DNA of 64,000 nt from assembly GCA_964509365.1 (NCBI GenBank), contig CAZDWN010000001.1, positions 11,074 to 75,073 of the forward strand. Direction: 5' to 3'. The notes beneath the pieces are model-generated. The model was not told the origin of the DNA. It searched no databases and saw only the letters and a program-made list of their open reading frames with translations. Within the stretch, counting starts at the first letter, position 1. Each line of letters begins with the position of its first letter. This DNA is from an uncultured Pseudomonadales bacterium. Its GTDB lineage: Bacteria > Patescibacteriota > Microgenomatia > UBA1400 > UBA12028. The position numbers and the translations under genes are program-made. Positions 12,612 to 34,907 of the stretch are shown here, one piece after another.

Positions 12612-12757
12612 CCCCATAACACGTTCGCCTTTCTACTCAATAGATCAAGGGACTAGCCTTGCTTTGGGGGTATTGACAAGCCCATAACAAATATGGTAAT
12701 CTTATAGCTATGTTGACAGGTTCTTCCTCACCGGGAATTACGTGTCAACCTTAAAGA

Positions 12758-12785
12758 ATCCCGTCCATGAGGCGGGTTTTTTTAT
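12758..12785 (+). terminator. Rho-independent terminator (cccgtccatgaggcggg + T7)
   Basis: GC stem-loop followed by TTTTTTT. Confidence 0.6.
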
Positions 12786-12802
12786 GCTAAAATCTCTCCC
12801 TT

Positions 12803-13045
12803 ATGATCGAAAAATATATTGCTGAAAATGGAACGGTAGTTTACTGGGCTACGAAACCTGAAGAAAAAGATCTTTTGCTCTCAGTCCTGAGAGGTAAAAA
12901 GCTTAATGTCGAAGATCCAATAGAAGGGCCGTTTGGCTGGAATTTCAAGATATCAAGAGAAGTAGATCAAGCAGAGTTTGAAAACTTTTTGTTGATTGCC
13001 AGTATCTCGATGCTAGTAGTGGACAACAGAAAAACCAGAGAGTAG
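12803..13045 (+). CDS. hypothetical small protein
   Basis: 80-aa ORF after the terminator. Confidence 0.3.
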   Translation: MIEKYIAENGTVVYWATKPEEKDLLLSVLRGKKLNVEDPIEGPFGWNFKISREVDQAEFENFLLIASISMLVVDNRKTRE

Positions 13046-13070
13046 ATCTACGGGGTATACTAACCATGTA

Positions 13071-13154
13071 GCCGACGTGGCGGAACTGGCATACGCGCAG
13101 GACTTAGAATCCTGTGATCGCAAGATCGTGGAGGTTCAACCCCTCTCGTCGGCA
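13071..13154 (+). tRNA. tRNA-Leu (anticodon TAG), class II with long variable arm
   Basis: Acceptor GCCGACG/CGTCGGC. Anticodon stem CAGGA/TCCTG with loop CTTAGAA. Long variable arm TGATCGCAAGATCG. T-arm GGAGGTTCAACCCCTC. CCA not encoded. Confidence 0.85.
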
Positions 13155-13224
13155 CAAGAGCTAGTCAAAAACGTGATCAACATGCGTGAGCTGCGACGAG
13201 CCGCAAAGGAAGTGCGTGCGTAAT

Positions 13225-13482
13225 TTATCTGTGCAGCGGCAGCGTTTCATCTACCGGATGGAGGAGTCTTCCTTCGGCTGTACGTGTCCCATTTAAGACC
13301 TCCATGATAAATTCTTCGCTCTCTCCTCGATCTCTATAGTGTTGAATCAATGTCTCCGCTGTGAAGTCAGGTTTATTCTCGACCGATTTTTCAAGATCGG
13401 GTTGGAGCTCATGCTCTTTCAACAATGCGTCTTCCTTGGCAGGTATGCCATTCTTGATTCGAGAGAATATGTTTTCAAACAT
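13225..13482 (-). CDS. hypothetical protein
   Basis: 85-aa ORF. Confidence 0.3.
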   Translation of the reverse strand: MFENIFSRIKNGIPAKEDALLKEHELQPDLEKSVENKPDFTAETLIQHYRDRGESEEFIMEVLNGTRTAEGRLLHPVDETLPLHR

Positions 13483-13582
13483 AGGAGTTTTCCTCCAGGA
13501 TAACGGACACCAGGTGAAATTATAGTTATGTCGCCTACCTGCGACAACCCACAGATTATTTTGCTACAATAAATCTTGAAGC

Positions 13583-16114
13583 ATGGATCAAGTATCGACA
13601 CCTCCAATTTCATCGCCGACAGTGGCGATGTCTCCTGCACCCGTTCAGGCTGCTCCGTCGACCCCTCCACCTCCAAAATTACCAGTCAAATCACCGACGC
13701 TCGTGCAACGAATCATCAAACAAAAAGGTCCAATTATCTGGGCTTGGATCGCCGCATATTGTATCGGCATGTTTGTCATGGGACTCATGATCCTCGTCCC
13801 CTCACTTCGTTCTATGTGGTCCGAACTGGGTGAAAAATCCGGTTCCGCTGCCGTGATCTTACTGTTTTTGACCATACTGCCAGGGACTATTCGCCGCATG
13901 GAGCTCAAAGGACCATTCATGCAACTGCAGCTCCTGATGATGGTGTTTCGCAGGCATCTTGGCATCTCGATGTTTTTGGCGGCGTTTGCGCATGCGATGT
14001 ATGCATACATCTTGCCAACGGTGGCGTTCAAACTACCACTGTTTCCGATGCTATCGTATGTCGTCTTTGGAGTGCTCGCACTAGCGTTGGCCGTACCGCT
14101 GTTTTTCACTTCGAATGATTACTTTGTGAAACTCTTAGGACCCTTGTGGCATCGCCTGCATACGTCAGTCTATGTGATCACCATCCTCACGCTCATCCAT
14201 TTGATCCTCTTGGGTGGAGTGCACCTGAGTACCGCACTTGCATTTTTTATCGTCTTTTTAGAAGGCGTCTCCTGGTCGACCAAATTTATCTCGACGAAAA
14301 AATATGCGCTCGCAGGGGCACTGATCGTGACGCTGATCCTCAGCAGTACTGCATATGCGACGTATATGATCACGCATCCACCAGCTCGACCAGTCAAAAA
14401 AGTGGTGACGGAAAATCTCATGGTGCCATTGAAAAAAAAAGGACAGGAATCATATACAGCAGCCATGGTCGCAAAACATACTAGCACTAGCGATTGCTGG
14501 ACGATCATCCGCGGCAAAATCTATTCGATCTCTGACTACATCAATGTCCATCCAGGAGGAGTAGAGACGATTCGAGAAGCATGTGGGATCGATTCTACCG
14601 AGCTCTTTGATACGAAAGGCGGACGAGACAGACCGCATACGCAATTTGCTGAAGATCTCTTGGTCAAATACTTGGTTGCTGCAGTTGGCGATCCTGTGCC
14701 AAATGCGAGTACATCACAAGAAGTACTAGAGAGCCCGATTGCCCAAGCTACTCCGATGCCCACACCAAGCTCTGCGATGCTGGATCCAAATCTCAAACTC
14801 ACCACAACACTCGTCGCGACTCACAACAAGACCTATGACTGCTGGCTCATCATCAATGCGAATGTCTATGATGTGACTGGCTACGTCCAGTATCACCCAG
14901 GGGGAACGCAGCAGATCTTGACGCGCTGTGGCACAGACGCGACTGATGCATTCAATACGAAGGGAGGAGTGGGGCGCACTCACAATGCGGACGCCGTGTC
15001 TATTCTCGCGAGTTTGCGCATCGGTGCGCTCAATCAAGTCGGTGTCCCATCGCCATTGCCGACGGCGACACCATCACCGACCCCAAAGCCGACTGTCTTG
15101 CCGACGCCGACGACACAGTCTGGGACCACACTCACGACGGCAATGGTCGCCACTCACAATACACAAAGCAACTGTTGGCTCATCATCAACAACAATGTCT
15201 ATGATGTCTCGCAGTACATCCCATATCACCCCGGTGGGACGCAGCAAATTCTCAATTTCTGCGGCAAAGAAAGTACCAGTGCGTTCAATACGAAAAACGG
15301 TGGCGGAGCACATACTTCGTATGCCCAGACACTTCTGGGTGGCTACAAAATCGGCGCGATCGGAGCTGTCGTGTCTGCGACACCGACTCCATCACCGACT
15401 CCTGTCCCAACTGCGACGCCAGTGCCGACAGCGACACCAAATCCCGAGACCGTCTATAGCGGAGCAACGATTGCCACTCACAATAGTATGTCGAGTTGCT
15501 GGCTCATCGTCAGTGGCAGTGTCTACGACGTCACGCAATATATCCCATACCACCCAGGAGGCACACAACAAATTCTTAACTTCTGTGGCCAGGAGAGTAC
15601 CAACGCATTTAATACAAAAAATGGAAGTGGATCGCACACCAATTACGCGATAACGCTCTTGGCAGGATACAAAATCGGAATCGCAAATATCACGACGACG
15701 CCGACACCAGTGCCGACCGCAGTGCCGACACCGACGCCGACGATCACTCCGACTGCCACACCTCGACCAACTGCTACTCCGACTCCGACCAAGACCCCGA
15801 GGCCCACCGCCACGCCGCGCCCGACAGCTACCCCGACGCCGACTCCGGCGCCGACAGCGACTCCAGCAGGGAACACCTACAGTGCTTCACAAGTCGCGAC
15901 ACACAACAATTCCAGTAGTTGCTGGCTCATCATCAATGGGAGTGTCTATGACGTGACGCAGTATGTGCCATTCCACCCGGGGGGAACGTCACGCATTCTC
16001 GTCGACTGCGGGAAAGAATCGTCGACCGATTTCAATACGCGTGGAGGGGGCAGTAGTCATTCAAATAGTGCCAAGTCATTGTTATCAGGAATGAAAATAG
16101 GAGTTCTCCAATGA
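13583..16114 (+). CDS. Membrane protein: ferric-reductase-like bis-heme TM domain fused to five tandem cytochrome b5-like heme-binding domains (Pro/Thr linkers)
   Basis: N-terminal ~230 aa form a polytopic TM region with two His pairs spaced 13 residues apart (HLGISMFLAAFAH and HTSVYVITILTLIH), as in FRD/MsrQ/NOX bis-heme domains. Five repeats follow, each with HNxxxxCWLIIxGxVYDVTxYxxxHPGG...CGxdsTxaFNTkxGxxxxH (cyt b5 HPGG motif plus second axial His), separated by PTPTP linkers. Confidence 0.7.
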   Translation: MDQVSTPPISSPTVAMSPAPVQAAPSTPPPPKLPVKSPTLVQRIIKQKGPIIWAWIAAYCIGMFVMGLMILVPSLRSMWSELGEKSGSAAVILLFLTILPGTIRRMELKGPFMQLQLLMMVFRRHLGISMFLAAFAHAMYAYILPTVAFKLPLFPMLSYVVFGVLALALAVPLFFTSNDYFVKLLGPLWHRLHTSVYVITILTLIHLILLGGVHLSTALAFFIVFLEGVSWSTKFISTKKYALAGALIVTLILSSTAYATYMITHPPARPVKKVVTENLMVPLKKKGQESYTAAMVAKHTSTSDCWTIIRGKIYSISDYINVHPGGVETIREACGIDSTELFDTKGGRDRPHTQFAEDLLVKYLVAAVGDPVPNASTSQEVLESPIAQATPMPTPSSAMLDPNLKLTTTLVATHNKTYDCWLIINANVYDVTGYVQYHPGGTQQILTRCGTDATDAFNTKGGVGRTHNADAVSILASLRIGALNQVGVPSPLPTATPSPTPKPTVLPTPTTQSGTTLTTAMVATHNTQSNCWLIINNNVYDVSQYIPYHPGGTQQILNFCGKESTSAFNTKNGGGAHTSYAQTLLGGYKIGAIGAVVSATPTPSPTPVPTATPVPTATPNPETVYSGATIATHNSMSSCWLIVSGSVYDVTQYIPYHPGGTQQILNFCGQESTNAFNTKNGSGSHTNYAITLLAGYKIGIANITTTPTPVPTAVPTPTPTITPTATPRPTATPTPTKTPRPTATPRPTATPTPTPAPTATPAGNTYSASQVATHNNSSSCWLIINGSVYDVTQYVPFHPGGTSRILVDCGKESSTDFNTRGGGSSHSNSAKSLLSGMKIGVLQ

Positions 16115-16818
16115 AACGAAATCCACGAAAAATACTCAAAAAAATTGCTTGGGTGACACTCGTGTTGCTCTTGATCTGGATCGTCTTCAAAGTACGGCTC
16201 ACCGTGCTCGGTCTGTATGTCGCGCTTGGGATGCATGCACCAGTATCGATCCGGTATGAGTGCGCGAAGCAGGCCGACAGTCTTGTGCATGATAAATTTC
16301 AGCTGCCGCTCGCATTTGATCAAGCCAGCAAAGATGGCCTTCGGGAGTTTTGGCATTACAGTTTTTATACCGGTTGCCTGCAAAATCATGGCTACGATCA
16401 CTATGGCAATCCAGTCCCACGCTCGAGTGTGACTGATACGGAGTTTATAAATGCATTCGGAGCATTTGCGCTCCCGATCGCGAATGCCAAAATACTTTCA
16501 GATAACCAAGTCGACGTTGCGTATGATGATCGTTTGATCCTCAGTGAGATAGTGTCCGTTGGGAAGACATACTCTGTCGGATGGTACAAGAAATTTGATC
16601 CAATGACACTTGATGAGTATGCAAAGCAGTGGACGCATTTTCCTCATACCGAAGAGCCTCTCACGATCGCATCTGCAAGTGGAGTCCTCACCGCGACCAA
16701 CTCCGCGGGCTTGTCTGGCTGCATGCGCTATTTCAAAGATGTGCCGTTCGTCATATTTGGAAACGGAGTCGATCCAAAATCCTGCACCAAGCTCATCCAG
16801 AGCGTCCGCACGTTGTGA
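16111..16818 (+). CDS. hypothetical membrane-anchored protein, translationally coupled to upstream gene
   Basis: ATGA overlap with the 13583-16114 gene. N-terminal TM/signal anchor. Followed by a terminator. Confidence 0.5.
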   Translation: MKRNPRKILKKIAWVTLVLLLIWIVFKVRLTVLGLYVALGMHAPVSIRYECAKQADSLVHDKFQLPLAFDQASKDGLREFWHYSFYTGCLQNHGYDHYGNPVPRSSVTDTEFINAFGAFALPIANAKILSDNQVDVAYDDRLILSEIVSVGKTYSVGWYKKFDPMTLDEYAKQWTHFPHTEEPLTIASASGVLTATNSAGLSGCMRYFKDVPFVIFGNGVDPKSCTKLIQSVRTL

Positions 16819-16937
16819 GGATATGCTATACTAGTTGTCATGAGTAGATCAGTTTCTATCAGTACGTACTATTACTTCCGCCTCCGCGGGAGATTGAGTC
16901 GTGTCTAGAAACTGAAAGAAATAACATACTCAAAATA

Positions 16938-16963
16938 CCCGCACCAAAGAGGCGGGTTTTTTT
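16938..16963 (+). terminator. Rho-independent terminator (cccgcaccaaagaggcggg + T7)
   Basis: Stem-loop plus T-tract immediately before the next ATG. Confidence 0.6.
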
Positions 16964-17734
16964 ATGGCAAAAACAACAATTGGAATCATCGGAACTGGAC
17001 GAATTGCGAGCGTGCTCAAGAAATTATTCGAAAAGAGCCCAGATGTGCTCGTCATGCAAAGTTCGAAGTCACAACGGATTGACGACCTCATAATTTTTGA
17101 TCTCACCCAGGTCTTGAATTGCGATATCGTCATAGCTGCCATTCCCATGTCGGCTCTTCAAACTTTCTTGATGAAAAATTCACAATTGATCGTCAGCAGC
17201 CCACTGTTTGTCGATGTCTGTTCAGTCAAAATGTTGCCTGCACAATGGATGCAACAACACTTGCCCGCACACGTCGATATACTCGCAACGCATCCGCTCT
17301 TTGGACCGACGAGTACAAAGCAGGGGACCGAGTTTACTGGTTTGAAATGCATCTTTTCACCAATACGAATCAAAGATACAAATCGATTCAAGTTCTTCTC
17401 AGCGCTGTTCACCGCATGGAAAATCACCATCGACACAATGAGTCCCGAAGATCATGACAAGTTGATGGCACGCACACAAGCGGTGTCATTTCTCTTTGGA
17501 CACTTGGGGCATGAGTTGACGCTTCGATCGACACATTTCGATACTGCAGGGTTCAAGGCGTTGCTCACCAATCAATCGATCGTCGAAGCTGACAGCCATG
17601 AGCTACTCGTGGATCTGTTCCGCTGTAATCCATATGCGCAGGAGACATTGCGTGAAGCAATCTCCCATCTGACTGACTTTTCTGACGAAATCGCTTCTGA
17701 GTATTCTTTTTATTACCAAGAAGGGAAGGGGTGA
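16964..17734 (+). CDS. tyrA: Prephenate/arogenate dehydrogenase-like (NAD-binding)
   Basis: N-terminal Rossmann motif IGIIGTGRIAS. HPLFGP motif characteristic of TyrA. Confidence 0.5.
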   Translation: MAKTTIGIIGTGRIASVLKKLFEKSPDVLVMQSSKSQRIDDLIIFDLTQVLNCDIVIAAIPMSALQTFLMKNSQLIVSSPLFVDVCSVKMLPAQWMQQHLPAHVDILATHPLFGPTSTKQGTEFTGLKCIFSPIRIKDTNRFKFFSALFTAWKITIDTMSPEDHDKLMARTQAVSFLFGHLGHELTLRSTHFDTAGFKALLTNQSIVEADSHELLVDLFRCNPYAQETLREAISHLTDFSDEIASEYSFYYQEGKG

Positions 17735-19797: not shown

Positions 19798-19902
19798 ATG
19801 ATGAATAAAAAAGTTAAAGTCGTGTTCCAAGTCATAATCGGGATCGTTATGGTCGCGTTTGCATTCGGCGGCATCATCCAAACCGTGTTGCTGCTTCGCT
19901 AA
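19798..19902 (+). CDS. 34-aa hydrophobic peptide (MMNKKVKVVFQVIIGIVMVAFAFGGIIQTVLLLR)
   Basis: Small ORF not in the track. Preceded by TATAAT. Single TM helix. Confidence 0.25.
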   Translation: MMNKKVKVVFQVIIGIVMVAFAFGGIIQTVLLLR

Positions 19903-19903
19903 T

Positions 19904-20347
19904 ATGGATCAACTACGCACTTTGCCTCCGACTTCAGGAGGTGCTTATGCGGGAGGCACGATTGCACTCCATCCGGATCTTTTTACGTCGCCTGAATTTA
20001 TCGCCAAGACCGATCGCACGCATACCTACTTTTGCATATTGATGCTCGTGCTCTTGCTCATCCTGTCACTGTTGTTTCCGCGTGATCTCGGCGCGACAGG
20101 ACTCCTCTACAAAGTCCGCGAGGTGTTCTTGATTCTTGCTGGCGTCAGCTTTACCTGGACAGCACTCAAGAAAATGAAAGTCTGGAGCTACCATCCGATG
20201 GCAAAAATCACGGTGTTTGTATTTTTTGGAGTGACACTGTTTGGTTTGACGACCGGACTCCTCATGTACCATGGAGTCGAAGAGCGCACGAATAAGGAAC
20301 TCCAAGCTCGACCCTACAATCAGCCGCAACAACTGATGAGAAAGTGA
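19904..20347 (+). CDS. hypothetical membrane protein
   Basis: ORF 19859-20347. Start moved to MDQLRT (19904), immediately after the small peptide stop. Confidence 0.4.
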   Translation: MDQLRTLPPTSGGAYAGGTIALHPDLFTSPEFIAKTDRTHTYFCILMLVLLLILSLLFPRDLGATGLLYKVREVFLILAGVSFTWTALKKMKVWSYHPMAKITVFVFFGVTLFGLTTGLLMYHGVEERTNKELQARPYNQPQQLMRK

Positions 20348-25527: not shown

Positions 25528-26394
25528 CTATTGTGAAGAGGTGAAGATAAGCCCCGAACTACTGGCCATGACTGGGATCGCAGCGTTGACACTGTCTGCC
25601 AATCGTTCTTCATTTGCCTTGGTGAGACGATCCAGGAGCGCGACTTCGCGAGGCGTCAATTGAACCACTGAAGTGACTTTGCCGCCAGTAAATGCGTTTT
25701 TCAAATAGAGTGAAGAGAGAGCGACTTCGGCAGAATACTCAGCACTCGTCGTCGCTTCACTCGCTTTGGCGTCCGTACTAAACTGGATCGAGTTGATCTG
25801 GATAAACGGCACGACATTATCAAGTGACTGGAAGAAGGTACTTAAGTTTGTAAATCCGCCAGACACATTCATTTTGAGAGGCAGAGTCGCCAGTAGGGGA
25901 GAAATCGGTGAAACGGTCGTCGCCGCTGCTGTGAGCTTGGCACTGCCAGTACCTAAGAGTCCAGGACTCACTTGAAAGTTTGCCACCGAGACGAGTGCAT
26001 TCGTCGCCAAGCGATCAATCGAGTAGAGCACTGGCAAAACTGGTTTTTCTACCGGCAGAGCGGCTGATAAGACATTGTTTGCGCGCGTGATATCCGTCGT
26101 ATCGAGCGCATCGAGACTCGAGATCAATCGTTGTTTGGTATCGAGCTCATCTTGCGCTGTCATCAATTCTTGTCTGATCGCCAAGATACTTTGGACCGCC
26201 GGGACCACGACGAGGACGAGCAGCACAATGATCGAAAGCCAGGCGATAAGCGAGATCGAAAAATACCGTCGGCGCTTTGCCAACGCGAGGATCGAGTCCA
26301 TCGAGAAGTCGAAGCCTGCTAATTTCTTTTCAAATGATACGGTCGTAGACATAGAATGCTTATAATCCGGCTGAATCTGTCGCAGTTGCTCCAC
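25528..26394 (-). CDS. pilO: Type IV pilus assembly protein PilO-like
   Basis: Single TM plus periplasmic/coiled-coil domain. Gene order pilM-pilN-pilO. Confidence 0.5.
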   Translation of the reverse strand: MEQLRQIQPDYKHSMSTTVSFEKKLAGFDFSMDSILALAKRRRYFSISLIAWLSIIVLLVLVVVPAVQSILAIRQELMTAQDELDTKQRLISSLDALDTTDITRANNVLSAALPVEKPVLPVLYSIDRLATNALVSVANFQVSPGLLGTGSAKLTAAATTVSPISPLLATLPLKMNVSGGFTNLSTFFQSLDNVVPFIQINSIQFSTDAKASEATTSAEYSAEVALSSLYLKNAFTGGKVTSVVQLTPREVALLDRLTKANEERLADSVNAAIPVMASSSGLIFTSSQ

Positions 26395-26950
26395 CTGGAG
26401 TCGCAGCTGCTTTCATAAATAATCTGACTTGCAAATCATACGTTCCATCCGCTCCTCGCGACAGGGAACCCAACTGTGGGCTAAATCCACTTTTGGCGAC
26501 TTCTTCCGATTGCAAAATAGTCGAAAGATTTTTGTACGAAAAAATGGATGGCGTTTTCACTGTAAACTCAAGAGACCCATCTGCGCCCGAGAGATTGATC
26601 GTCTCGATGCGAGAATCGGTAGGGATGACGGTATAGAGATATCTGATGGCGTCCCATGCTTTCGTCCGTTTCTCGATCACTTGCTGCGTCAGGCCCAGCA
26701 TATTTTTGCGTTTGGTGTAGGCGTTTTGGATGGCTGAGAGTGACGTGAGTTTGGCATCAGCTTGCTCGGATTGCGCTTTGACCACGCCGATTTGATTGGA
26801 GAGATAGTAGCGATACCCGATCACACCGACAAAGGTGACGAGGAAAAGACCCAAAGCCACTGAAGTAAAAAACGCCAATTTTTTGTCAGATTGAAGTACT
26901 GCTTCTTGCAGTCTGACACGCTCTCGTAAGAAATTAATCCGATCGTACAT
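26360..26950 (-). CDS. pilN: Type IV pilus assembly protein PilN-like
   Basis: N-terminal motif INFLRER plus one TM helix. Follows pilM. Confidence 0.6.
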   Translation of the reverse strand: MYDRINFLRERVRLQEAVLQSDKKLAFFTSVALGLFLVTFVGVIGYRYYLSNQIGVVKAQSEQADAKLTSLSAIQNAYTKRKNMLGLTQQVIEKRTKAWDAIRYLYTVIPTDSRIETINLSGADGSLEFTVKTPSIFSYKNLSTILQSEEVAKSGFSPQLGSLSRGADGTYDLQVRLFMKAAATPGGATATDSAGL

Positions 26951-26963
26951 AGGTGTTCACTAG

Positions 26964-27998
26964 TTAAATAGACCGCATCGCCAATCCGACGGCGACTGAA
27001 AATGCAGATTCACGATCGGTCGGTACCGGTGTCTTGGTATCGGTGATCAAATTTTCAAATGGATGGGCGACCGAGCACTCGATACCAAGTTGTGATCCCA
27101 TCAAGGGGATGAGTCCAGGCATCTGCGCACTCCCGCCAGAGAACACGATGTTCTTCACGGTTTGCGTGCCATATTGGCTCGTAAAATATTGCATTGCTTT
27201 TTGGATCTCGATGATAAACAGTTGGAGCACTGGCTGCACGATCTTGGCGATCTTGCCCTCTAGGAAACTCGGATCGACTCCATAGGAGATTTTGTACTCT
27301 TCTGCTTGTTTGGTGTCGACATTCATACTGCGTTCGATTGATCGTGTGATCAGTCTGCCGCCATTGGAGAAAGAGTACACAAACACGATCTCACCTTGAT
27401 GCACAATAAAGAAATCTGTGCTGGCAGCTCCCATGTGAACGTACAAGGTCGTCGGCGTATTTTCTTTGACGAGCGCTCGCAAGATCGAGACGACTTGCGA
27501 CTCAAGTGCGACTGGCTCCATCTCGAGATACTCAAAGAATGACATGTAGGAAGTGATGACTGCTTTTGGCACACCGATCAGCAACACTCTCATGCTGTCC
27601 GTCTTTTTATTGGCTGGAGGACGATAGAGCACTTCATACTCGACACGAAGCTCTTCAAGCGGGATGGCTATATGTTGCTCTGCAAGCCAATCGATCGCTG
27701 ACGCCAACTCTTGATCAGTCAATGGGGGAGTGGTGATGATTTTGGTACTGATGACACTTTCAGGCAGCGCTGCGCGCAAATTTTTGATCGTGTATTTATT
27801 GTCGATCAACTCTTTTTTGATCATTCCCGCAAGTTGCTTCACCTGATCGGCGTCTTGTGGGATCATCACTCCAAACGGGTGAGTGAACTGATTGACTCGG
27901 ACGACTCGATGCTTTGAGCCTTCTTTGGAGAGTTCGATGAGCTTGATTGAGTGTGATCCGAGATCAAATCCGACTGAGTTCATAGCGCTAGTCCTCAC
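26964..27998 (-). CDS. pilM: Type IV pilus assembly ATPase-like protein PilM (actin fold)
   Basis: VGFDLGSHSIKLIEL N-terminus and FSGGSAQMPGL phosphate-2-like motif of the PilM/FtsA fold. Confidence 0.8.
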   Translation of the reverse strand: MRTSAMNSVGFDLGSHSIKLIELSKEGSKHRVVRVNQFTHPFGVMIPQDADQVKQLAGMIKKELIDNKYTIKNLRAALPESVISTKIITTPPLTDQELASAIDWLAEQHIAIPLEELRVEYEVLYRPPANKKTDSMRVLLIGVPKAVITSYMSFFEYLEMEPVALESQVVSILRALVKENTPTTLYVHMGAASTDFFIVHQGEIVFVYSFSNGGRLITRSIERSMNVDTKQAEEYKISYGVDPSFLEGKIAKIVQPVLQLFIIEIQKAMQYFTSQYGTQTVKNIVFSGGSAQMPGLIPLMGSQLGIECSVAHPFENLITDTKTPVPTDRESAFSVAVGLAMRSI

Positions 27999-28015
27999 AT
28001 GCCTGGAGGCCTCGT

Positions 28016-28855
28016 TTATTGTGTAATGGATGTCCCTGAAAAGAGCACATAATCGAGTACGGATGGCGCGACAGGTAATGTTTTGGTCACTTCTACTGCC
28101 TTGGTCTCTTTACTCGTCGAGTTTTGCGCCGTCGACGTGACTGTATAGCTTTGAGTGTTGAGACTCGAGCCGTCGACACGAATATCTGAGCCGTTGTAGA
28201 CTGGGCGAATACGGATCAAATAGTCTTGTGAAGTTGTCGCCACGGTGTGTCGGAATTTAAATCCAGGCGTCAGTGGTCCTCCACTCGGAGACATAAAGCC
28301 ATCACTGGTTCGACAGCTCGGTGGCGAGACATAGTAGCGGCGCACCGGGTCTGCCGCCTTGTTACTCAAGATCGTGATCACCAGCGAGGCTTGAGTGGCA
28401 CAGCTCGATTCTTTCGCCCACTGAATATTGACTGGCGCTCCATTGTTGCCGGTCAGATCGACACCAACCGTGACACCTTGCTCGACATTTGTCTCAAGAT
28501 TTGTCTTACTGACGACATTCGTTTGGACTGCGACTGTACCGTCAGGTGACGTGGTCGCGATCGGCCCAGTAGTGTTATTCAAGTTTCCATTGAGTGCTTT
28601 CTCGACGTTGCTTTCAGCAATATCGAGAGCGCGATTGGCCTGTTCATTCGTTGACGAGATGTTCACATCACTTGTGGTACGCGAGACGGCAGAGATACCG
28701 ACGGTCAACATGACGACCGTGATCAAAAGCATGATGATACCAACTTGACCGCTAGTACTGCGATGCAAGCGCTGTAGGCGGGATTGACCTGAGTTTTTTT
28801 GAGTTTTTTCCATACTGTGTATTTTTAGTGTAGCAACTTTTTGTATGGTCAACAA
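28016..28855 (-). CDS. PilX-N-like pilus-associated protein
   Basis: N-terminal hydrophobic segment SGQVGIIMLLITVVMLTVGISAV resembles the PilX N-terminal domain. Ser/Thr/Asn-rich extracellular region. Lies inside the pilus locus. Confidence 0.4.
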   Translation of the reverse strand: MLTIQKVATLKIHSMEKTQKNSGQSRLQRLHRSTSGQVGIIMLLITVVMLTVGISAVSRTTSDVNISSTNEQANRALDIAESNVEKALNGNLNNTTGPIATTSPDGTVAVQTNVVSKTNLETNVEQGVTVGVDLTGNNGAPVNIQWAKESSCATQASLVITILSNKAADPVRRYYVSPPSCRTSDGFMSPSGGPLTPGFKFRHTVATTSQDYLIRIRPVYNGSDIRVDGSSLNTQSYTVTSTAQNSTSKETKAVEVTKTLPVAPSVLDYVLFSGTSITQ

Positions 28856-28857
28856 GA

Positions 28858-29430
28858 TCAGTTGTTCCGGAGCGTGATCGAAGCACTAAAGGGGATGGAG
28901 ACTTTGTCTCGTGCACTTCCAGCCGCATTTTTTTCAAGTGTAAAACTCATCGTGACGATGGGAGGTGAACCGTCCCAACCACTCTGGCCATACGTACTTG
29001 GACTGCACGAAAACTGTAAAGTCCCAGTCGATGGGATCGTCAGATCTGTGGGCGCCATATCGGAATCAGTTCCATTGATTGTTGCTTCGAGTTTCCCGGC
29101 TTTCGTCCAGTAGCTGGTGATCGTGCCATCTTGGTTTTCGACAGAGATCGACTTCATGTTGGAATTGCAGATAGCTGACGGAGTATCTTTGTTCGCGACG
29201 ATTTTGCGAGCATTGCGGATGGTAAACGTCATTTGGCTGAGGATTTGGCCACCAGCTTGTTTGGCGTACTCACCAGAAGCAGTTTTGCCTCCGCCGACAA
29301 ACGTCGTAAAAAAAAGTGACACTGCGGTCAGGAGCAAAATTGCTGCCAGTCCGATCACGACGACCAGTTCAATTAACGTGTATCCATTGTTTTTTTTGGA
29401 ATTTGGATTTTGGATTTTGGATTTTTTCAT
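28858..29430 (-). CDS. Prepilin-type N-terminal cleavage/methylation domain protein (minor pilin)
   Basis: Class III signal peptide NNGYTLIELVVVIGLAAILL. Confidence 0.75.
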   Translation of the reverse strand: MKKSKIQNPNSKKNNGYTLIELVVVIGLAAILLLTAVSLFFTTFVGGGKTASGEYAKQAGGQILSQMTFTIRNARKIVANKDTPSAICNSNMKSISVENQDGTITSYWTKAGKLEATINGTDSDMAPTDLTIPSTGTLQFSCSPSTYGQSGWDGSPPIVTMSFTLEKNAAGSARDKVSIPFSASITLRNN

Positions 29431-29431
29431 G

Positions 29432-29890
29432 TTATTTCCACTGATAGAGTGTGACGGTCGATTCTGATTTCAAGACTCTCGATCCATCATTCCACGTCAC
29501 CGTCGCCACTGCCTGGATGGAGCTTGCTGTCGGTTTGGTGATCTGGATTTGGCGATAGAACTGACCTGAGATCATATTGTTTACGTTGGTGCCGCAGGCA
29601 GTGTTCGTCAAGTTTGCAAATGCCTTGTAATCCGCAGGGAGCGTCTTCATACAGTACGGGTTCCCAGTTTTACTGATGGCATAAAACGTTTCCCAGCCAG
29701 CTTGATCTCGCAAATTACGAAGTGACTCCAACGATTCGCGCACGTATTCCTTTGCGGTGGCTTGATCCTTGGCGATCCGGCTATTGCGCACACCGATGGA
29801 GATCCCAGAAACGAGTGTCGTCAGCACCAGGACCACGAGGCCGGCGGCGATGATGACTTCGATGAGCGTTTGTCCTGATTGGCTTTTCAT
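29432..29890 (-). CDS. Prepilin-type minor pilin
   Basis: SGQTLIEVIIAAGLVVLVL. Translationally coupled to its neighbours. Confidence 0.7.
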   Translation of the reverse strand: MKSQSGQTLIEVIIAAGLVVLVLTTLVSGISIGVRNSRIAKDQATAKEYVRESLESLRNLRDQAGWETFYAISKTGNPYCMKTLPADYKAFANLTNTACGTNVNNMISGQFYRQIQITKPTASSIQAVATVTWNDGSRVLKSESTVTLYQWK

Positions 29891-30390
29891 AATGCGACTG
29901 GGTCAGAGTCTTGGATCAACCCTTGATTGGAGACAGTGATCTTGTACTTGAGTCCTCCAGATCCAGTGAGGCAGTTTTTTGTGCAAAATTCGATCGCATA
30001 CGGGCTGGCTCCGACAAAGGTGACGTTGCCTCCGAGACTTTGAAATGTCAGCGTGAAATTATTTTTAAACGTCACACCGCTTGGTAAATTGACTGTCTTG
30101 GTAACTTGTGGAGTGCATGTGCCACCATAATTTTCAGTGATCGTATACGTCCCGCTTGAACCAGCAACTCGATATCCTGACATCGGTTGGTCTTTGCAAG
30201 CTTCGACTGATTTGACATTGGAGCTGGCTTTCGATTGCGCTTGACGCAGATCCACCAGCATTTGTTTTCCTGAGGTGATCACGATTTGGCGCAAGTTAAA
30301 TGTTCGATACCCGGCGACGCCACCGATCGTGACCACAGCGATCAGCCCAATGACGATCATGAGTTCGATGAGTGTAAAACCATTCTTCAT
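29887..30390 (-). CDS. Prepilin-type minor pilin
   Basis: MKNGFTLIELMIVIGLIAVV. Confidence 0.75.
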   Translation of the reverse strand: MKNGFTLIELMIVIGLIAVVTIGGVAGYRTFNLRQIVITSGKQMLVDLRQAQSKASSNVKSVEACKDQPMSGYRVAGSSGTYTITENYGGTCTPQVTKTVNLPSGVTFKNNFTLTFQSLGGNVTFVGASPYAIEFCTKNCLTGSGGLKYKITVSNQGLIQDSDPVAL

Positions 30391-30396
30391 AGGACC

Positions 30397-30813
30397 CTAT
30401 GGTTGGGTGACACAGAAGTAGTCACCCGTAGTCGTCGCGCTCACCCCACAAGTGTTGTTCGTATTTGGACCTTTGCCGAGGATCTCGAGCTGCGCACACA
30501 GACAATACTGTCCGGCTGCAGGCAGTGTGTAGTTGTACGAATATCCTACTTTTGGATCTTTTGGCAATGGATCTGAGATATATCCGTTTGTTCGCATGAC
30601 ATTCATTGCGTTCGTGAGATCCACAGGCGGGTAGGCACCAAACTGAGACCGGTACAGCTCTAATGCAGCGCGTACTTGAGACAGATCGCCTTTGCGTTTC
30701 CCATCACGCCCACTCTTCGCTGCATTCTGGAAGCTTGACAATCCGACCGTGGTGAGGACCGCGATGATCGCGATCACCACCAATAACTCGATCAGTGTAA
30801 AGCCTTTTCTCAT
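30397..30813 (-). CDS. Type IV pilin (PilA-like), paralog A
   Basis: MRKGFTLIELLVVIAIIAVL. C-terminal Cys pairs (YCLCAQ...CGV...YFCV). Confidence 0.8.
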   Translation of the reverse strand: MRKGFTLIELLVVIAIIAVLTTVGLSSFQNAAKSGRDGKRKGDLSQVRAALELYRSQFGAYPPVDLTNAMNVMRTNGYISDPLPKDPKVGYSYNYTLPAAGQYCLCAQLEILGKGPNTNNTCGVSATTTGDYFCVTQP

Positions 30814-30816
30814 AGT

Positions 30817-31269
30817 TTATTGCAGTTGTCTCACACAATAGTACCCTTGTGCAGCGGCCCCTGGAGCAACGAAGTTACATGATGAGTTTGTCGAATTACC
30901 TTTACCCAATACTTCTAGACCTGCACAAGCACAATAGGTCGTTGCTGTAGAAGCACACACATAGGTGTTTGGTGCGACATTTTTTGGATCAACCGGCATT
31001 TTTCCAGATTGGACGCTTGAGTACATCAAACTTGTACTCGTATTACAGTCATTCAAGTACACGTTATTGGTATTGTAATACTGTTCAAAGGAGTCTTGCA
31101 TCGCTTTGATGTCTCCATAGCGTCTGGCGTCACGTGCACGTGCTTGTGCAGATGTAAACGAAGACAATCCGATGGTTGAGAGGACAGCAATGATGGCGAT
31201 GACGACAAGCAATTCAATCAGAGTGAACCCTGCAGTGGTCTTGGTTTTTAATGCTGAGCGAAACGACAT
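30817..31269 (-). CDS. Type IV pilin (PilA-like), paralog B
   Basis: AGFTLIELLVVIAIIAVL. Same C-terminal Cys pattern as paralog A (YCACAG...CNF...YYCV). Confidence 0.8.
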   Translation of the reverse strand: MSFRSALKTKTTAGFTLIELLVVIAIIAVLSTIGLSSFTSAQARARDARRYGDIKAMQDSFEQYYNTNNVYLNDCNTSTSLMYSSVQSGKMPVDPKNVAPNTYVCASTATTYCACAGLEVLGKGNSTNSSCNFVAPGAAAQGYYCVRQLQ

Positions 31270-31289
31270 AGCAATTTCTCCTTATAGTT

Positions 31290-32195
31290 CTATTCTTTTC
31301 TAATATAGATCGTCGAGGCGTCGTTGACAACTGATGAATTGCCCTTGGTATCGGTGGCTTTGATCACGGCGGCATTACTACATGGGCCAGGACACGAGTA
31401 GGTGTGGACAAATGAACCAGCTGCTTCAGTCGAGCTATCATTTGCACCGTCACCATAGTCGATACTGACTTTGTCAATTTTCCCACCCAAGAGGGCAGAG
31501 GTGTATGAGAATGTGACGACCAGAGAGTCTGTGTCCATGCGCACGACATTGCCAGAGACCGGATACGGATCAGTGGTAAATGCTTGGACATACGGGAGCG
31601 GTGCACATGCGGCATAGCAATTGTTGGCACAGTCAGTGACTTTTGAAGATTGTAGCGCGCCTGTACCATGCTCTTGATCTGGAGAGCAACACTGATATCC
31701 CCATCCTAGACATGCAGTGGCTGGAGCTTCCGACGTTGTCTCTATTCCCACGTGTTCACTACTTGTATCGACCGTGAGTTCTTTTTTCGCTGCGAGCGAC
31801 TGCAGTGTGATTGTGCCCTTGGTCGGTCGGGTGAGATCGACATAATAGCCAGCTGTGCCAGGCACTTTCGTGACAAACATTGGCAGACTCCCACTGCGAA
31901 GTATCACTGGCGTATTTTCGATGAGAGTACAGAGCACTTCCGTTTGATAATGAGTGGCATCGATAAATCGCAATTGCACGGCGATCGGCTGCGAGATCTG
32001 ACTAGAAGCAGGCGCGTTTTGACACGTCTTCGTGAGATTACTGAGCGTCAGATGCACCGTCTCTAGATTTTTCATCTCATCCAAAAAGCCATTGAGTGAG
32101 ATCGCCATCCAGAGTTGGCCACAGAAAAAATACACAAACGCACCGAGGAAGGCGAGGATGCACACCCATTTGATAAAGAAGCCAGCGATTCTCAT
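31290..32195 (-). CDS. Membrane-anchored Cys-rich protein with PKD-like domain (pilus locus)
   Basis: Start set to MRIAGFFIKW (32195), giving an ATGA overlap with the pilD stop. TM helix. Cys cluster CLGWGYQCC...CANNCYAACAP. C-terminal PKD-like DYGDG...HTYSCPGPCSNAAVIKATDTKGN. Confidence 0.5.
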   Translation of the reverse strand: MRIAGFFIKWVCILAFLGAFVYFFCGQLWMAISLNGFLDEMKNLETVHLTLSNLTKTCQNAPASSQISQPIAVQLRFIDATHYQTEVLCTLIENTPVILRSGSLPMFVTKVPGTAGYYVDLTRPTKGTITLQSLAAKKELTVDTSSEHVGIETTSEAPATACLGWGYQCCSPDQEHGTGALQSSKVTDCANNCYAACAPLPYVQAFTTDPYPVSGNVVRMDTDSLVVTFSYTSALLGGKIDKVSIDYGDGANDSSTEAAGSFVHTYSCPGPCSNAAVIKATDTKGNSSVVNDASTIYIRKE

Positions 32196-33010
32196 AGCAT
32201 GGAGAGATACCAACTGACGAGACGGTCTCCCCACAATAATGCTACGACAGATCCGAATATCAAGAAAGGGCCAAATGGAATTACTCCGGTGAGTTTCTTT
32301 GATTTCCGCCACATCATGAGCATCCCGACTATCGCTCCAGAGACACATGCCACAAAGATCGCCACGATACTGTTGGGATAGCCCAAGATGATGCCAAGTG
32401 GAAACACGAGCTTCACGTCTCCCAATCCCATTCCACGACCTTTCGTAATCAGCACGAGTGCAAAGAAAAAGAGGCTGCACACCAGTGCCGTCGCCAATGA
32501 GATAATGAAGTCTTGCGTCTGCATCGCGCCAGTGTGCGCAAGATACAGTCGATACATGACTGAGGCGACCGTGAGTAAGACGACCGTACTATCGGGGATG
32601 ATCATGTACGAGATATCAGTAAAGGTAATCACGAGAAAAAGAATACCGACGGAGAGCCAAAAAATCGGTTGGATAAAACTCAATGGCTGACTCGACAATT
32701 GAAAGAACGTAAATCCAACCATGTACCACCACACAAACAGCGCTCCGGTGAGCAGCTCCACTGCTGGATACTCCCATGGGATGGGAGTCTTGCAATGGCG
32801 ACAGCGACGCTTGAGGATCAAGAACGAAAAAAGGGGAATGTTGTCGTACCAAGCGATCGGTTTCTTACATTCATCGCAGTACGAGCGACCACGGATCGGA
32901 GAATCCCCATGGACCATCCGGTAGATGACCACGTTTAAAAAACTTCCGATCGCAAGTCCAAACAGAAATAAGACAGCTGCTACAAATAAAAACGGGATCA
33001 TACTTGCCAC
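32192..33010 (-). CDS. pilD: Prepilin peptidase (A24 family)
   Basis: N-terminal tetracysteine (CDECKK...CRHCK). Polytopic with catalytic Asp motifs (DISYMIIPD, GLGDVKL). Confidence 0.85.
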   Translation of the reverse strand: MASMIPFLFVAAVLFLFGLAIGSFLNVVIYRMVHGDSPIRGRSYCDECKKPIAWYDNIPLFSFLILKRRCRHCKTPIPWEYPAVELLTGALFVWWYMVGFTFFQLSSQPLSFIQPIFWLSVGILFLVITFTDISYMIIPDSTVVLLTVASVMYRLYLAHTGAMQTQDFIISLATALVCSLFFFALVLITKGRGMGLGDVKLVFPLGIILGYPNSIVAIFVACVSGAIVGMLMMWRKSKKLTGVIPFGPFLIFGSVVALLWGDRLVSWYLSML

Positions 33011-33113
33011 AGTATACTATACCAATTGCGCCTTGCTAGGCAGCGGATCGCACTGACAAAAAACTCCCCCAGGTTTCCCTGGAGGAGTTTTGAATTTCAT
33101 GTAGTACGAAAGA

Positions 33114-33692
33114 TCAAGGAACACAAATTGGATTGGTTCCTGCTGTTGTTGGTGGCGTCCCATCGGTGGTTGCACACGTTTGCGGCCTGATTACGTTTAT
33201 AACGTCACCATTTGTATCACAGTATTGATCAGCGATCTTGCGATTGGAGTTTGATTTCGGGTAGTAGCACATATACGTACTACTTCCTGAGCCAGCTGCG
33301 TGGAGGATCAAGATCGATTTACTCAGTTTGAGTCGGTTCGCAAATGCATCTTTGATCTCTTGCGTCACAGCCAAGTTATCTACCCATTTCCAGTCTGGAC
33401 TGCCAGAGCGTGAGTCAAAGACCCAAGCACCTGCTGGATCGATATCACTTCCTGGAGCATACCCAGTCGCTGACGCCACATTCCATGGAAAGACCGAAGG
33501 ATTTGAGTTCGTGTAGTAGCGCTCTGAAGCACCCAACAGTTGTGACACATCAGAGTTCGTTTGTGTGTCTCGACCTTTGTTGATTTGTTCGAGCGGATTG
33601 ATAGCCGAGAGCACTGCGACCGCGAGGATGGCGATGATCGCGATGACGACCAAAAGCTCGATGAGTGTAAATCCATTTCGACGAAGTGTCAT
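33114..33692 (-). CDS. Type IV pilin
   Basis: RRNGFTLIELLVVIAIIAILAV class III signal. Confidence 0.8.
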   Translation of the reverse strand: MTLRRNGFTLIELLVVIAIIAILAVAVLSAINPLEQINKGRDTQTNSDVSQLLGASERYYTNSNPSVFPWNVASATGYAPGSDIDPAGAWVFDSRSGSPDWKWVDNLAVTQEIKDAFANRLKLSKSILILHAAGSGSSTYMCYYPKSNSNRKIADQYCDTNGDVINVIRPQTCATTDGTPPTTAGTNPICVP

Positions 33693-33707
33693 ACTGCTCC
33701 TTTTAGA

Positions 33708-34907
33708 TTAGAACTGATTGGTCAAATTATATATTGGCATGATGATCGCAATGATCAAAAACCCGACCCCAAGTCCTAATACGATCATGATAAGAGGTTC
33801 CAGAGCGGTCGTCAATCCTTTGACGGCGTGCTCGGACTCTGACTCGAAGTAACTCGACAGTTTGAGGAGGACCTCATCCATCTTTCCTGTCTCTTCACCG
33901 ACGGAGATCATCTGCGACATCAGGACAGGGAACTCCTGACGGTGTGCGACACTGGATGCCAAGGTCTGACCTTTTTCCACTTCCTTATATATTTTTTGAA
34001 GAGCTTGCTTAAAGACCATGTTCTCGACCGCATCGGTCGCGATTTCTAGAGCGAGCAGTAGGGAGATACCAGCACTGACGAGCAGAGAGAGCGTACGCGT
34101 GAGCTCGACGAGCGTCGTCTTTGCGCGAATATCTCCAAAGACCGGCATCTTGAGCAGGAGTTCATCGATCTTCAGTCTGCCTTGCGGAGTCTTGTAGTAC
34201 GCACGCACTCCCAAGAATATACCGACGGCACCGATGACAAAGACGTACCAAAATTGCGACATGATATTGGACATCCCGATGAGGATCTTGGTAGGTCCAG
34301 GTAATTCTGCGCCAAAATCTTTATACATTGATGTCATCTTTGGCACGACAAACACCATCATGATAAAACCGACGACGACCATCGCGGTGAGCACGATCGC
34401 AGGGTAGACGAGCGCGCCTTTGGTTTTCGCTGAGAATTCTTTTTCTTTTTCGAGGGTATCTGCGAGACGATTGAGGACTTTCTCCAAGACACCAGCAGAC
34501 TCACCCGCTTTGATGAGCGCAATGTAGACGTCACTAAACGGTGGTTGATGTTTTTCGATCGCTTTGGCGAGCGTCGATCCACCTTCGACATCACGTCTGA
34601 CTGCTTCGATCACTTTTTGCATCGATGGTTTCGCCTGCACCATGAGGATGCCAAGAGCTTCAGTCAATGGAAGTCCAGCGGTGATCATCGTCGAGAGCTG
34701 GCGCGTGAAGTTCACCACATCTGTTGAGGAGATATTGGAGAACTGCAGCATGTTCGTGAGACTGCGATCTTTATATTGCGTCAGGGAGATGACAAAGAGT
34801 CCGCGCTCACGCAAGATCACGCTCGCGTCCTTGATGCTTTGCGCTTCGACTTTACCGGTAACCGCTTCGTTTTTCTGCGTGCGGGCTTTGTAAGAATAAG
34901 TAAGCAT
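33708..34907 (-). CDS. pilC: Type IV pilus assembly platform protein PilC (GspF family)
   Basis: Two GspF repeats, three TM segments, ~400 aa. Confidence 0.85.
   Translation of the reverse strand: MLTYSYKARTQKNEAVTGKVEAQSIKDASVILRERGLFVISLTQYKDRSLTNMLQFSNISSTDVVNFTRQLSTMITAGLPLTEALGILMVQAKPSMQKVIEAVRRDVEGGSTLAKAIEKHQPPFSDVYIALIKAGESAGVLEKVLNRLADTLEKEKEFSAKTKGALVYPAIVLTAMVVVGFIMMVFVVPKMTSMYKDFGAELPGPTKILIGMSNIMSQFWYVFVIGAVGIFLGVRAYYKTPQGRLKIDELLLKMPVFGDIRAKTTLVELTRTLSLLVSAGISLLLALEIATDAVENMVFKQALQKIYKEVEKGQTLASSVAHRQEFPVLMSQMISVGEETGKMDEVLLKLSSYFESESEHAVKGLTTALEPLIMIVLGLGVGFLIIAIIMPIYNLTNQF

Follow-up and report, generated by a model that had tools for sequence, protein, structure and literature searches.

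The gene pair and its layout

We analysed a 64-kb stretch of DNA (contig CAZDWN010000001.1 of an uncultured member of the Patescibacteria; the whole stretch is called the window below) and focus on two overlapping genes of its forward strand. The upstream gene encodes an 843-aa protein in which a membrane-embedded ferric reductase domain (FRD) is continued by a seventh transmembrane (TM) helix and five cytochrome b5 (b5) domains. The downstream gene encodes a 235-aa membrane-anchored partner. Reasoning by homology, we consider it fairly probable that the two coupled genes specify a module for outward electron transfer across the membrane.

An earlier reading of the letters by a model (the sequence-only reading) had called the 843-aa product, a coupled downstream gene and a terminator behind the pair, and all three are upheld here. 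The open reading frame (ORF) at 13583-16114 is continuous. The partner ORF (16111-16818) overlaps it by ATGA, is preceded by AGGAG 7 nt upstream and is translationally coupled, and its product begins with a TM helix. Positions 16938-16963 hold a CCCGC/GCGGG hairpin with a T7 tail; our consensus scanner missed it because its 9-nt loop is above the scanner limit. Promoter-like sites around 13541-13570 are no more numerous than in shuffled sequence in a consensus scan. The features of the pair, with the evidence for each, are as follows.

13541..13570, +: promoter-like site GCGACA-18 nt-TACAAT with TG upstream, ~12 nt 5' of the ATG; weak (consensus scan, 9/12 matches)
13583..16114, +: FRD-TM7-(b5)x5 fusion gene, 843 codons (continuous ORF; Pfam; homologous fusions P0001 with four b5 domains and P0019 with two)
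13583..13723, +: Pro/Ser/Thr-rich N-terminal cytoplasmic segment with a basic cluster at its end (K32, K36, R43, K46, K48); similar segment in P0001
13724..14290, +: predicted MsrQ/YedZ-type ferric reductase domain, six TM helices, residues ~48-236 (Pfam, weak NCBIfam MsrQ match, conservation, AlphaFold2, Foldseek)
14306..14374, +: additional TM helix 7 (TM7), residues 242-264, predicted to run from the cytoplasm to the outside (hydropathy, charge distribution, DSSP helix 242-264 in the AlphaFold2 model)
14453..14689, +: b5 domain 1, residues 291-369, His323/His352, Cys305/Cys334, membrane-proximal, a distinct subtype (Pfam, alignment)
14798..15034, +: b5 domain 2, residues 406-484, His438/His467, Cys420/Cys449 (Pfam, alignment)
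15131..15364, +: b5 domain 3, residues 517-594, His549/His577, Cys531/Cys560 (Pfam; best PDB match 1CXY, E 4.6e-18)
15455..15688, +: b5 domain 4, residues 625-702, His657/His685, Cys639/Cys668, 70% identical to domain 3 (Pfam, alignment)
15878..16111, +: b5 domain 5, residues 766-843, His798/His826, Cys780/Cys809, after the 63-residue Pro/Thr linker (Pfam, alignment)
16099..16103, +: Shine-Dalgarno sequence AGGAG of the partner gene, within the 3' end of the b5 gene, 7 nt 5' of the ATG (read directly)
16111..16818, +: partner gene, 235 aa, with an N-terminal TM anchor, a two-helix segment with WHYS..CL..GY and a candidate Mog1/PsbP-like beta domain (homologue alignment, AlphaFold2)
16938..16963, +: intrinsic-terminator-like hairpin CCCGC...GCGGG plus T7, closing the two-gene unit (sequence inspection)

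The membrane domain resembles MsrQ

Profile searches agree with the sequence-only reading that an FRD-family membrane domain is fused to a b5 array. Pfam Ferric_reduct (PF01794) matches residues 87-203 at 36.1 bits (gathering cutoff 28), and five matches to PF00173 follow. Matches to the MsrQ and MamZ-type models of NCBIfam were weak and far under the cutoffs. Hydropathy and AlphaFold2 (AF2) agree on seven TM helices (~48-71, 73-105, 123-148, 158-175, 187-210, 215-236 and 242-264), and AF2 models the FRD core with confidence, at a predicted local distance difference test score (pLDDT) of 84-94. The best Foldseek matches were STEAP1, the TM domain of NOX5 and STEAP2, with probabilities of 0.98-1.00 but E values of 0.05-0.25 for a model that includes a poorly folded b5 tail. 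The FRD region has no match at E <= 1 among PDB sequences, and Pfam finds no FAD_binding or NAD_binding domain in the 843-aa protein.

An exhaustive HMMER search with the FRD region against 1.84 billion representative proteins gave 560 matches; neither the window protein nor P0001 is among the representatives matched. Nearly all of the best 150 are stand-alone proteins of ~200-230 aa, P0019 being the only b5 fusion among them. These 150 were aligned with the window protein, P0001 and E. coli MsrQ (153 sequences in all). His137 and Gly127 are present in every sequence (153/153 each), His206 in 152, Arg123 in 151 and His193 in 143. At position 125 the counts are Gln 60, His 49, Tyr 20 and Glu 10; P0019, an independent fusion, has Gln there.

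The sequence-only reading had proposed two His pairs 13 residues apart and, from these, the bis-haem arrangement of the FRD/MsrQ/NOX domain. One pair stands, as His193 and His206 are 13 residues apart. The other does not: His125 and His137 are 12 apart, and His125 varies among the 153 sequences. The first canonical His of TM3 would fall 14 residues before the outer His, and this position is Arg123, which leaves His125 two residues out of canonical register. A survey of FRDs reports that in YedZ/STEAP-type domains a conserved Arg replaces this first TM3 His (PMC3591440).

A 2025 study of E. coli MsrQ describes one haem b on the periplasmic side (potential ~-250 mV) and flavin mononucleotide (FMN, ~-340 mV) in a cytoplasmic pocket formed by Arg77, Arg78, Leu131, Ser135, Trp147 and His151 (PMC12525009). 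The E. coli MsrQ sequence used here agrees with the numbering of that paper at 8/8 positions. MsrQ residues R77, R78, H91, L131, S135, W147, H151 and H164 correspond to identical residues R123, R124, H137, L173, S177, W189, H193 and H206 of the window protein, so that every FMN-pocket residue is present, and these eight positions are 87-100% conserved in the 152 relatives. Because His125 is off register and not conserved, and because the MsrQ residues map with Arg123 at the canonical His, we rejected the bis-haem NOX-type arrangement. As judged by these residues, the membrane domain is most likely an MsrQ-type flavocytochrome with two predicted cofactors, one outer haem (predicted ligands His137 and His206) and one inner flavin (predicted pocket Arg123, Arg124, Leu173, Ser177, Trp189 and His193). 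An MsrQ orthologue proper was also considered and rejected, because the equivalog model NF003831 scores 32.4 bits against a cutoff of 130 and no msrP gene is nearby: none, that is no gene for the molybdopterin oxidoreductase, adjoins the pair in the window or in the related loci L001 and L021-L023.

Five b5 domains on flexible linkers

The five Pfam Cyt-b5 (PF00173) matches total 302 bits (E 6e-92, above the gathering score). As the sequence-only reading had it, each domain has both HPGG (at residues 323, 438, 549, 657 and 798) and a second axial His, which lies 28-29 residues further on in all five. Two Cys stand at fixed positions in each domain. Both axial His align with those of the solved b5 proteins 1CXY and 2IBJ. 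The best solved match for the repeats is 1CXY (E 4.6e-18), which shares both axial His, the Cys pair and a 4-residue insertion before the second His. CXXCH motifs are absent from the protein, whose Cys residues (60, 305, 334, 420, 449, 531, 560, 639, 668, 780 and 809) include no two that are 3 residues apart.

The four inter-domain linkers (36, 32, 30 and 63 residues) are 53-84% P+T+S+A and fit the earlier description as Pro/Thr-rich; the 26-residue segment between TM7 and b5 domain 1 does not, being basic and only 27% P+T+S+A. Since flexible linkers of 30-63 residues join the b5 domains, the array points to a tethered relay, and the rigid haem "wire" of the sequence-only reading is not supported.

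Domain 1 is a separate, orthologously conserved subtype: its identity is 58% to the first domain of P0001 and 33-46% to every other domain. The distal domains are alike within the window protein (51-70% identity; 70% for domains 3 and 4), and this is the pattern expected from tandem duplication.

The C-termini of related proteins differ. Several b5-array homologues end in a Pro/Thr-rich stretch plus 4-7 Asp (L001, 8001-10154; L018, 2-253; L019, 2-271; L020, 3-257), unlike the window protein, which stops right after the fifth b5 domain. Cation or mineral binding is a possibility for these poly-Asp tails. P0002, P0003, P0004 and P0019 (L021-L024) carry a conserved C-terminal domain of ~50 residues with the pattern YPGA.I…G..YE.K.D. 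We tried PepSY as its identity and rejected it, the matches being sub-threshold (E ~0.03) and found in 2/4 tails.

Topology

The six-TM core of MsrQ-type proteins has both termini in the cytoplasm and its haem on the outer side (PMC12525009), and the seventh helix should therefore export the C-terminal part of the window protein. Lys and Arg are distributed accordingly, with 15 in the predicted inside segments and 3 in the outside loops (manual count from the residue list). In L002 and L003, which are from metagenome-assembled genomes (MAGs) of Paceibacterota/Pacebacteria, single-domain b5 genes lie beside stand-alone FRDs of the clade of the window FRD, and their products begin with typical lipoprotein signal peptides (MKKIINLSFLLVVSAFFLSS and MKKHTYLILLFLTSLFFSG, each followed directly by Cys). 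The multi-b5 relatives without an FRD (P0002-P0005) have one N-terminal hydrophobic anchor each, and P0003 and P0005 also contain bacterial Ig (Big_7) domains. The solved relative 1CXY is presumably periplasmic and disulfide-bonded. The extracytoplasmic placement of the b5 domains in the sequence-only reading is thus supported, as a prediction from sequence and model, by the seven-helix topology, the positive-inside bias, the lipoprotein signals and the signal-anchored relatives.

The partner protein

The partner has no match in Pfam or NCBIfam and no recognisable redox or cofactor-binding domain. An AF2 model built with five homologues is confident (pLDDT 88) and shows a TM helix (5-38), two further helices (45-62 and 71-92) and an antiparallel beta domain. 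The last looks like a candidate Mog1/PsbP-like fold; Foldseek gave no significant match in the PDB. Cys51, Cys89, a W-H-Y-S...C-L...G-Y motif and an H-F pair are invariant in 7/7 divergent homologues, and Cys204 and Cys225 are present in 6/7. The sequence-only reading had suggested a terminal redox partner, which neither the candidate Mog1/PsbP-like fold nor the lack of a Pfam or NCBIfam match bears out. The partner is most likely a docking, assembly or substrate-presenting subunit rather than a redox enzyme.

Relatives of the module

A homology search recovered the FRD+(b5)n architecture in other genomes. The FRD-b5 fusions found number three, all from uncultured organisms: the window protein (five b5 domains), P0001 (four; 54% identical overall) and P0019 (two; 34%). 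The full-length and the linker-free word-indexed searches do not amount to a census, as the former missed P0019 and the latter missed P0001; in the full-length search, which gave few matches, words from the Pro/Thr linkers probably swamped the limit of 8000 candidates. Species-representative genomes and JGI metagenomes yielded no further fusions and no partner homologues, the window's own genome being outside the representative set scanned. The nearest FRD relatives are mostly from Patescibacteria. The source is probably a Patescibacteria/CPR bacterium near the Woesebacteria; the pyrophosphatase encoded in the window clusters at >=90% identity with a protein annotated as Candidatus Woesebacteria.

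The partner family occurs in eight loci (the window, L001 and L018-L023), beside b5 arrays that are fused to the FRD or split from it, and the claim of a conserved, translationally coupled partner gene holds. Its start overlaps the end of a b5-terminated gene in the window, L001, L018, L019, L020 and L021; in L022 it lies two genes downstream of the b5 array, and in L023 it is convergent with the array. Because L018-L020 were retrieved via the partner itself, the independent test of linkage is formed by five loci retrieved via b5 or FRD. The partner is present in three of these (L021, L022 and L023) and not in L024 or L025. It is absent from 20/20 loci with a stand-alone FRD.

Two split loci show how the components are arranged as separate genes. 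The order in L022 is a stand-alone FRD, a TM-anchored protein with four b5 domains, a DoxX-family protein and the partner. L023 belongs to a Candidatus Pacebacteria MAG; here the gene of the b5 array shares 4 bp with that of a 439-aa Ferric_reduct + FAD_binding_8 + NAD_binding_1 protein, which carries the canonical His86/His100 and His160/His173. Judging from this domain content, the electron source in L023 would be explicitly cytoplasmic NAD(P)H. An array coupled to a complete FRD with flavin adenine dinucleotide (FAD) and NAD(P)H domains therefore makes the b5 array and partner look like the conserved output, with either class of FRD as input.

Other genes recur around these components. A small DoxX-family membrane protein directly follows the multi-b5 gene in L022 (1793-2287) and L024 (5708-6205) and may be an accessory component. 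In the Paceibacterota loci L002 (7950-9870) and L003 (7863-9740), a stand-alone MsrQ-type FRD, a convergent lipoprotein b5 gene and a DsbD_TM/CcdA gene are found together. This grouping hints at a link between the b5 family with the Cys pair and extracytoplasmic thiol redox.

Proposed route and its alternatives

The data given above show which domains are present, that the cofactor residues are conserved, that the three components are linked and that export signals occur. In the route that we propose, a cytoplasmic NAD(P)H-dependent flavin reductase would reduce the flavin held in the cytoplasm-facing pocket (Arg123, Arg124, Leu173, Ser177, Trp189 and His193), and the electron would pass to the single haem b near the outer face (His137/His206). 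TM7 would place the rest of the chain outside, where the specialised membrane-proximal b5 domain could accept the electron, and the four further bis-His b5 domains on their Pro/Thr linkers would relay it by collision through the cell wall. By our estimate, the ~187 linker residues could in principle give the array a reach of tens of nanometres. The path would end at an extracellular acceptor, for which our leading guesses are a metal, Fe(III) or another, taken up by reduction, or electron disposal that regenerates NAD(P)+ in a fermentative cell. The partner would serve as the membrane-anchored docking, assembly or substrate-presenting subunit. Typical b5 potentials are above those of the flavin and haem of E. 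coli MsrQ, so outward flow would be downhill. From the genes present, the b5 array of L023, coupled to an FRD+FAD+NAD(P)H protein, strengthens the outward reading. Of the extracellular electron transfer (EET) in the sequence-only reading, outward transfer is thus retained, and the rigid wire and the bis-haem input are not.

Several points weigh against outward transfer. The fusion itself is very rare, with three instances. The AF2 model of the FRD with b5 domain 1 gives a poor b5 part (pLDDT 30-60), which bears on how this domain docks to the FRD, and the long flexible linkers make efficient transfer from domain to domain uncertain. Within the ~40 kb of the 64-kb window that we annotated, the surroundings of the pair show no gene for a cytoplasmic reductase, a terminal acceptor or metal uptake. 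CPR (Candidate Phyla Radiation) bacteria are generally considered to be without haem synthesis, which makes the supply of haem a difficulty. We infer which cofactors are bound, which way electrons flow, how they are relayed and what accepts them.

Four other explanations were weighed. The pair could serve haem capture in a haem-auxotrophic CPR cell, in which NEAT-like b5 domains would bind host haem and pass it inward along the array, the FRD would reduce the haem iron for hand-off or release, and the partner would be a membrane-proximal receptor or chaperone. We regard this as unlikely, although tandem haem-binding domains on wall-spanning Pro/Thr linkers would suit it, as would the varying b5 copy number (2, 4 and 5), the fast evolution typical of surface receptors, the invariant His and Tyr of the partner (WHYS, HF) with its ligand-binding-type candidate fold, and the general view that CPR cannot make haem. 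Tamarit et al. also speculate on reduction-triggered haem release at CPR FRD/b5 loci (10.1101/2021.11.17.468889). Yet the b5 domains have the canonical bis-His HPGG signature of electron carriers and can be aligned in full with 1CXY, a redox cytochrome. The annotated part of the window encodes neither a NEAT domain nor a haem transporter or haem oxygenase near the pair, and the array of L023, directly coupled to an entire NAD(P)H oxidoreductase, reads more naturally as electron export. A comparably unlikely use is redox supply to a specific extracytoplasmic enzyme, or thiol/disulfide maintenance, in the way that MsrQ feeds MsrP; the target would be a surface repair or wall-modifying enzyme encoded elsewhere, or a partner that binds a cofactor. 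The membrane domain is of the type that serves a dedicated periplasmic enzyme in E. coli, the partner is strictly linked to b5 arrays and has invariant Cys, His and Tyr, and DsbD_TM/CcdA genes flank the FRD and b5 genes in L002 and L003 as DoxX genes flank the b5 arrays in L022 and L024. What speaks against such a supply role is that no MsrP/molybdoenzyme or other known redox enzyme adjoins the pair in the examined loci, and that the partner matches no cofactor-binding family and has non-catalytic folds as its nearest.

A NOX-like module would turn O2 outside the cell into superoxide or peroxide, whether as a weapon or signal directed at a host or to scavenge O2 at the surface, and its b5 domains would shift the site of reduction away from the membrane. 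CPR adapted to oxic conditions are known (PMC12577380), the domain belongs to the FRD superfamily, and L023 pairs a b5 array with a full NOX-type FRD+FAD+NAD protein. We think it rather improbable all the same: the outer haem of NOX reduces O2 itself, which would make b5 domains superfluous, six-coordinate bis-His b5 haems are, as general knowledge has it, slow with O2, and no superoxide dismutase or peroxidase gene lies near the pair in the annotated part. Inward electron uptake, from a host surface, mineral or soluble donor through the b5 domains and the FRD to the cytoplasmic flavin, is very improbable. The architecture is reversible in principle, and CPR episymbionts are generally known to be in close contact with their hosts, but electrons would have to run uphill from typical b5 potentials to the haem and FMN values of E. 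coli MsrQ. The characterised FRD-family systems (NOX, FRE, STEAP and MsrQ) are moreover described as outward, and the L023 relative has an input domain that oxidises NAD(P)H.

Relation to known systems

Among the characterised systems close to the proposed outward-transfer module is E. coli MsrQ (YedZ). Common to both are a six-TM core of the FRD type, an Arg-Arg pair where TM3 begins, a single TM3 His and H-x12-H in TM5, with the six FMN-pocket residues and both haem ligands identical (PMC12525009). The proposed route is also alike, with a flavin reductase in the cytoplasm at one end and an extracytoplasmic acceptor at the other. The window protein differs in having TM7 and five fused b5 domains and no MsrP nearby, with a candidate Mog1/PsbP-like partner instead. 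NOX/FRE proteins (NOX5, SpNOX and yeast FRE1) share the FRD fold and outward transfer, and the long form of the FRD is coupled to a b5 array in L023. Their substrate is reduced at the outer haem, and they are without b5 domains, whereas the window protein is without the FAD/NAD(P)H dehydrogenase domain and without the first canonical TM3 His (Arg123). 1CXY, the cytochrome b558 of Ectothiorhodospira vacuolata, has the same axial His, CW...CG Cys pair and 4-residue insertion but is a single soluble protein of 90 residues, with no tether and no membrane domain.

The closest genomic precedent is the work of Tamarit et al. 2021 (bioRxiv 10.1101/2021.11.17.468889). There, FRD and b5 genes are reported to co-locate specifically in CPR genomes, with b5 genes <=10 kb away in 185/1427 FRD-containing genomes; the PF01794 and PF00173 products are all described as membrane-associated, and a complex of unknown function is proposed. 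L002, L003, L022 and L023 are split-gene examples of these "pFre" + b5 clusters. The reported clusters differ from the window pair in being centred on the MAPR-like, Tyr-ligated cytb5MY and in consisting of separate genes with two-component regulators, whereas the window b5 domains are of the classical bis-His "clade-2" type, like 1CXY. MsrQ-like cytochromes fused or linked to flavinylated FMN-bind domains likewise hand electrons to an extracytosolic redox domain in the same polypeptide or operon (PMC11334425); the carrier in the window protein is instead a non-covalent haem b5, in five copies. Neither protein of the pair has a Pfam match to the FMN_bind domain or to ApbE/FmnB.

The multihaem c-type cytochrome conduits (Mtr/Omc) and flavin-based EET of Gram-positive bacteria (Ndh2/EetAB/PplA) have the role that we propose, taking cytoplasmic electrons to acceptors outside. 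The window system is without CXXCH, covalent haem, quinone-linked Ndh2 and a flavinylated lipoprotein, and its haems would occupy individual domains on flexible tethers instead of a packed haem chain. It differs from the NEAT/Isd haem relay in that no NEAT match was obtained and no transporter adjoins the pair. The sequence-only reading had set the system apart from c-type and flavin-based EET. The lack of CXXCH and FMN_bind agrees with this, and the novelty is reduced by the earlier report of FRD/b5 co-location. That co-location in CPR (10.1101/2021.11.17.468889) and the feeding of extracytosolic redox domains by MsrQ-like cytochromes (PMC11334425) are already known. In the passages of these two papers that were read or searched we found no covalent fusion of FRD, TM7 and (b5)n, no b5 domains in tandem on wall-spanning linkers and no partner family, nor the interchange of MsrQ- and NOX-type inputs or the assignment of a flavin plus one haem. 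To that extent, the FRD-b5 fusion, the tandem b5 array and the partner family are new.

Genomic context and divergence

The pair is flanked by a tRNA-Leu gene (13071-13155) and a prephenate-dehydrogenase-like gene (16964-17734). The annotated part of the window holds genes for housekeeping and for glycogen metabolism as well as a type IV pilus cluster, and no respiratory or haem-related genes were seen in it. We considered the NAD(P)-binding product of 16964-17734 as a STEAP-like reductase partner and rejected it: the gene lies beyond the terminator, L001 and L019 lack it, and it matches prephenate dehydrogenases best, in each case far under the cutoff. In the comparison with the syntenic locus L001, this gene is present in the window only. 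The T-run of the terminator directly abuts its ATG. The 145-nt intergenic region 16819-16963, 3' of the partner gene, folds far better than shuffled sequence (z = -4.24) and contains a long imperfect hairpin (~16842-16930) ahead of the terminator hairpin; it has no match in Rfam.

The module evolves much faster than the genes around it. It is 54-56% identical to that of L001, as against 80-83% for the M32 peptidase, TyrRS and RecG. Against L019, the partner is 53% identical and TyrRS 95%. This divergence fits a surface-exposed system under diversifying pressure, or allelic exchange. A small membrane ORF at 19859-20347 is similarly divergent (56%). Where the window has tRNA-Leu and small ORFs (12612-13582), some seven different genes are called in L001 (3826-8000), NUDIX and AAA_28 genes among them. 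The type IV pilus cluster on the reverse strand (25528-37953) encodes PilM, a PilO-like protein, five proteins with the prepilin-type N-methylation motif, T2SSF (PilC) and two T2SSE ATPases. A tyrosine recombinase/integrase on the same strand (48238-49176; Phage_integrase with a SAM-like N-terminal domain) may be XerC/D or belong to a mobile element.

A collection of 15 billion proteins contains nine other proteins of the same 326,014-bp contig but not the exact 843-aa sequence, and 13583-16114 was probably called there with another start or not called. Automated resources may therefore under-report this architecture.

Implications

Assignment to the MsrQ type instead of a bis-haem type matters for experiments, since flavin and a flavin reductase would be needed and not NAD(P)H alone. 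The fused form unites FRD, b5 array and partner, which are separate genes elsewhere, in a defined, expressible two-gene construct. Such a construct suits the probing of the CPR-specific function that Tamarit et al. 2021 left unexplained.

The usual picture of Patescibacteria is of symbionts that live by fermentation and have few cofactor pathways and no electron-transport chain. More tentatively, and with more doubt than conviction, we suggest that CPR/Patescibacteria have an EET class of their own, built from non-covalent b-type haems with an MsrQ- or NOX-type FRD as input, a surface b5 array of variable length and a dedicated Mog1/PsbP-like subunit. If so, b-haem EET would be mechanistically distinct from multihaem c-type and flavin-based EET, and tethered b5 haems would be a third solution beside multihaem c-type cytochromes and flavinylated proteins. 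Fermenting cells that have no respiratory chain would then be able to dispose of electrons to minerals, oxygen or even the surface of a host cell, and a haem/flavin route from cytoplasm to surface would change the view of redox balance, iron nutrition and host interaction in the Patescibacteria.

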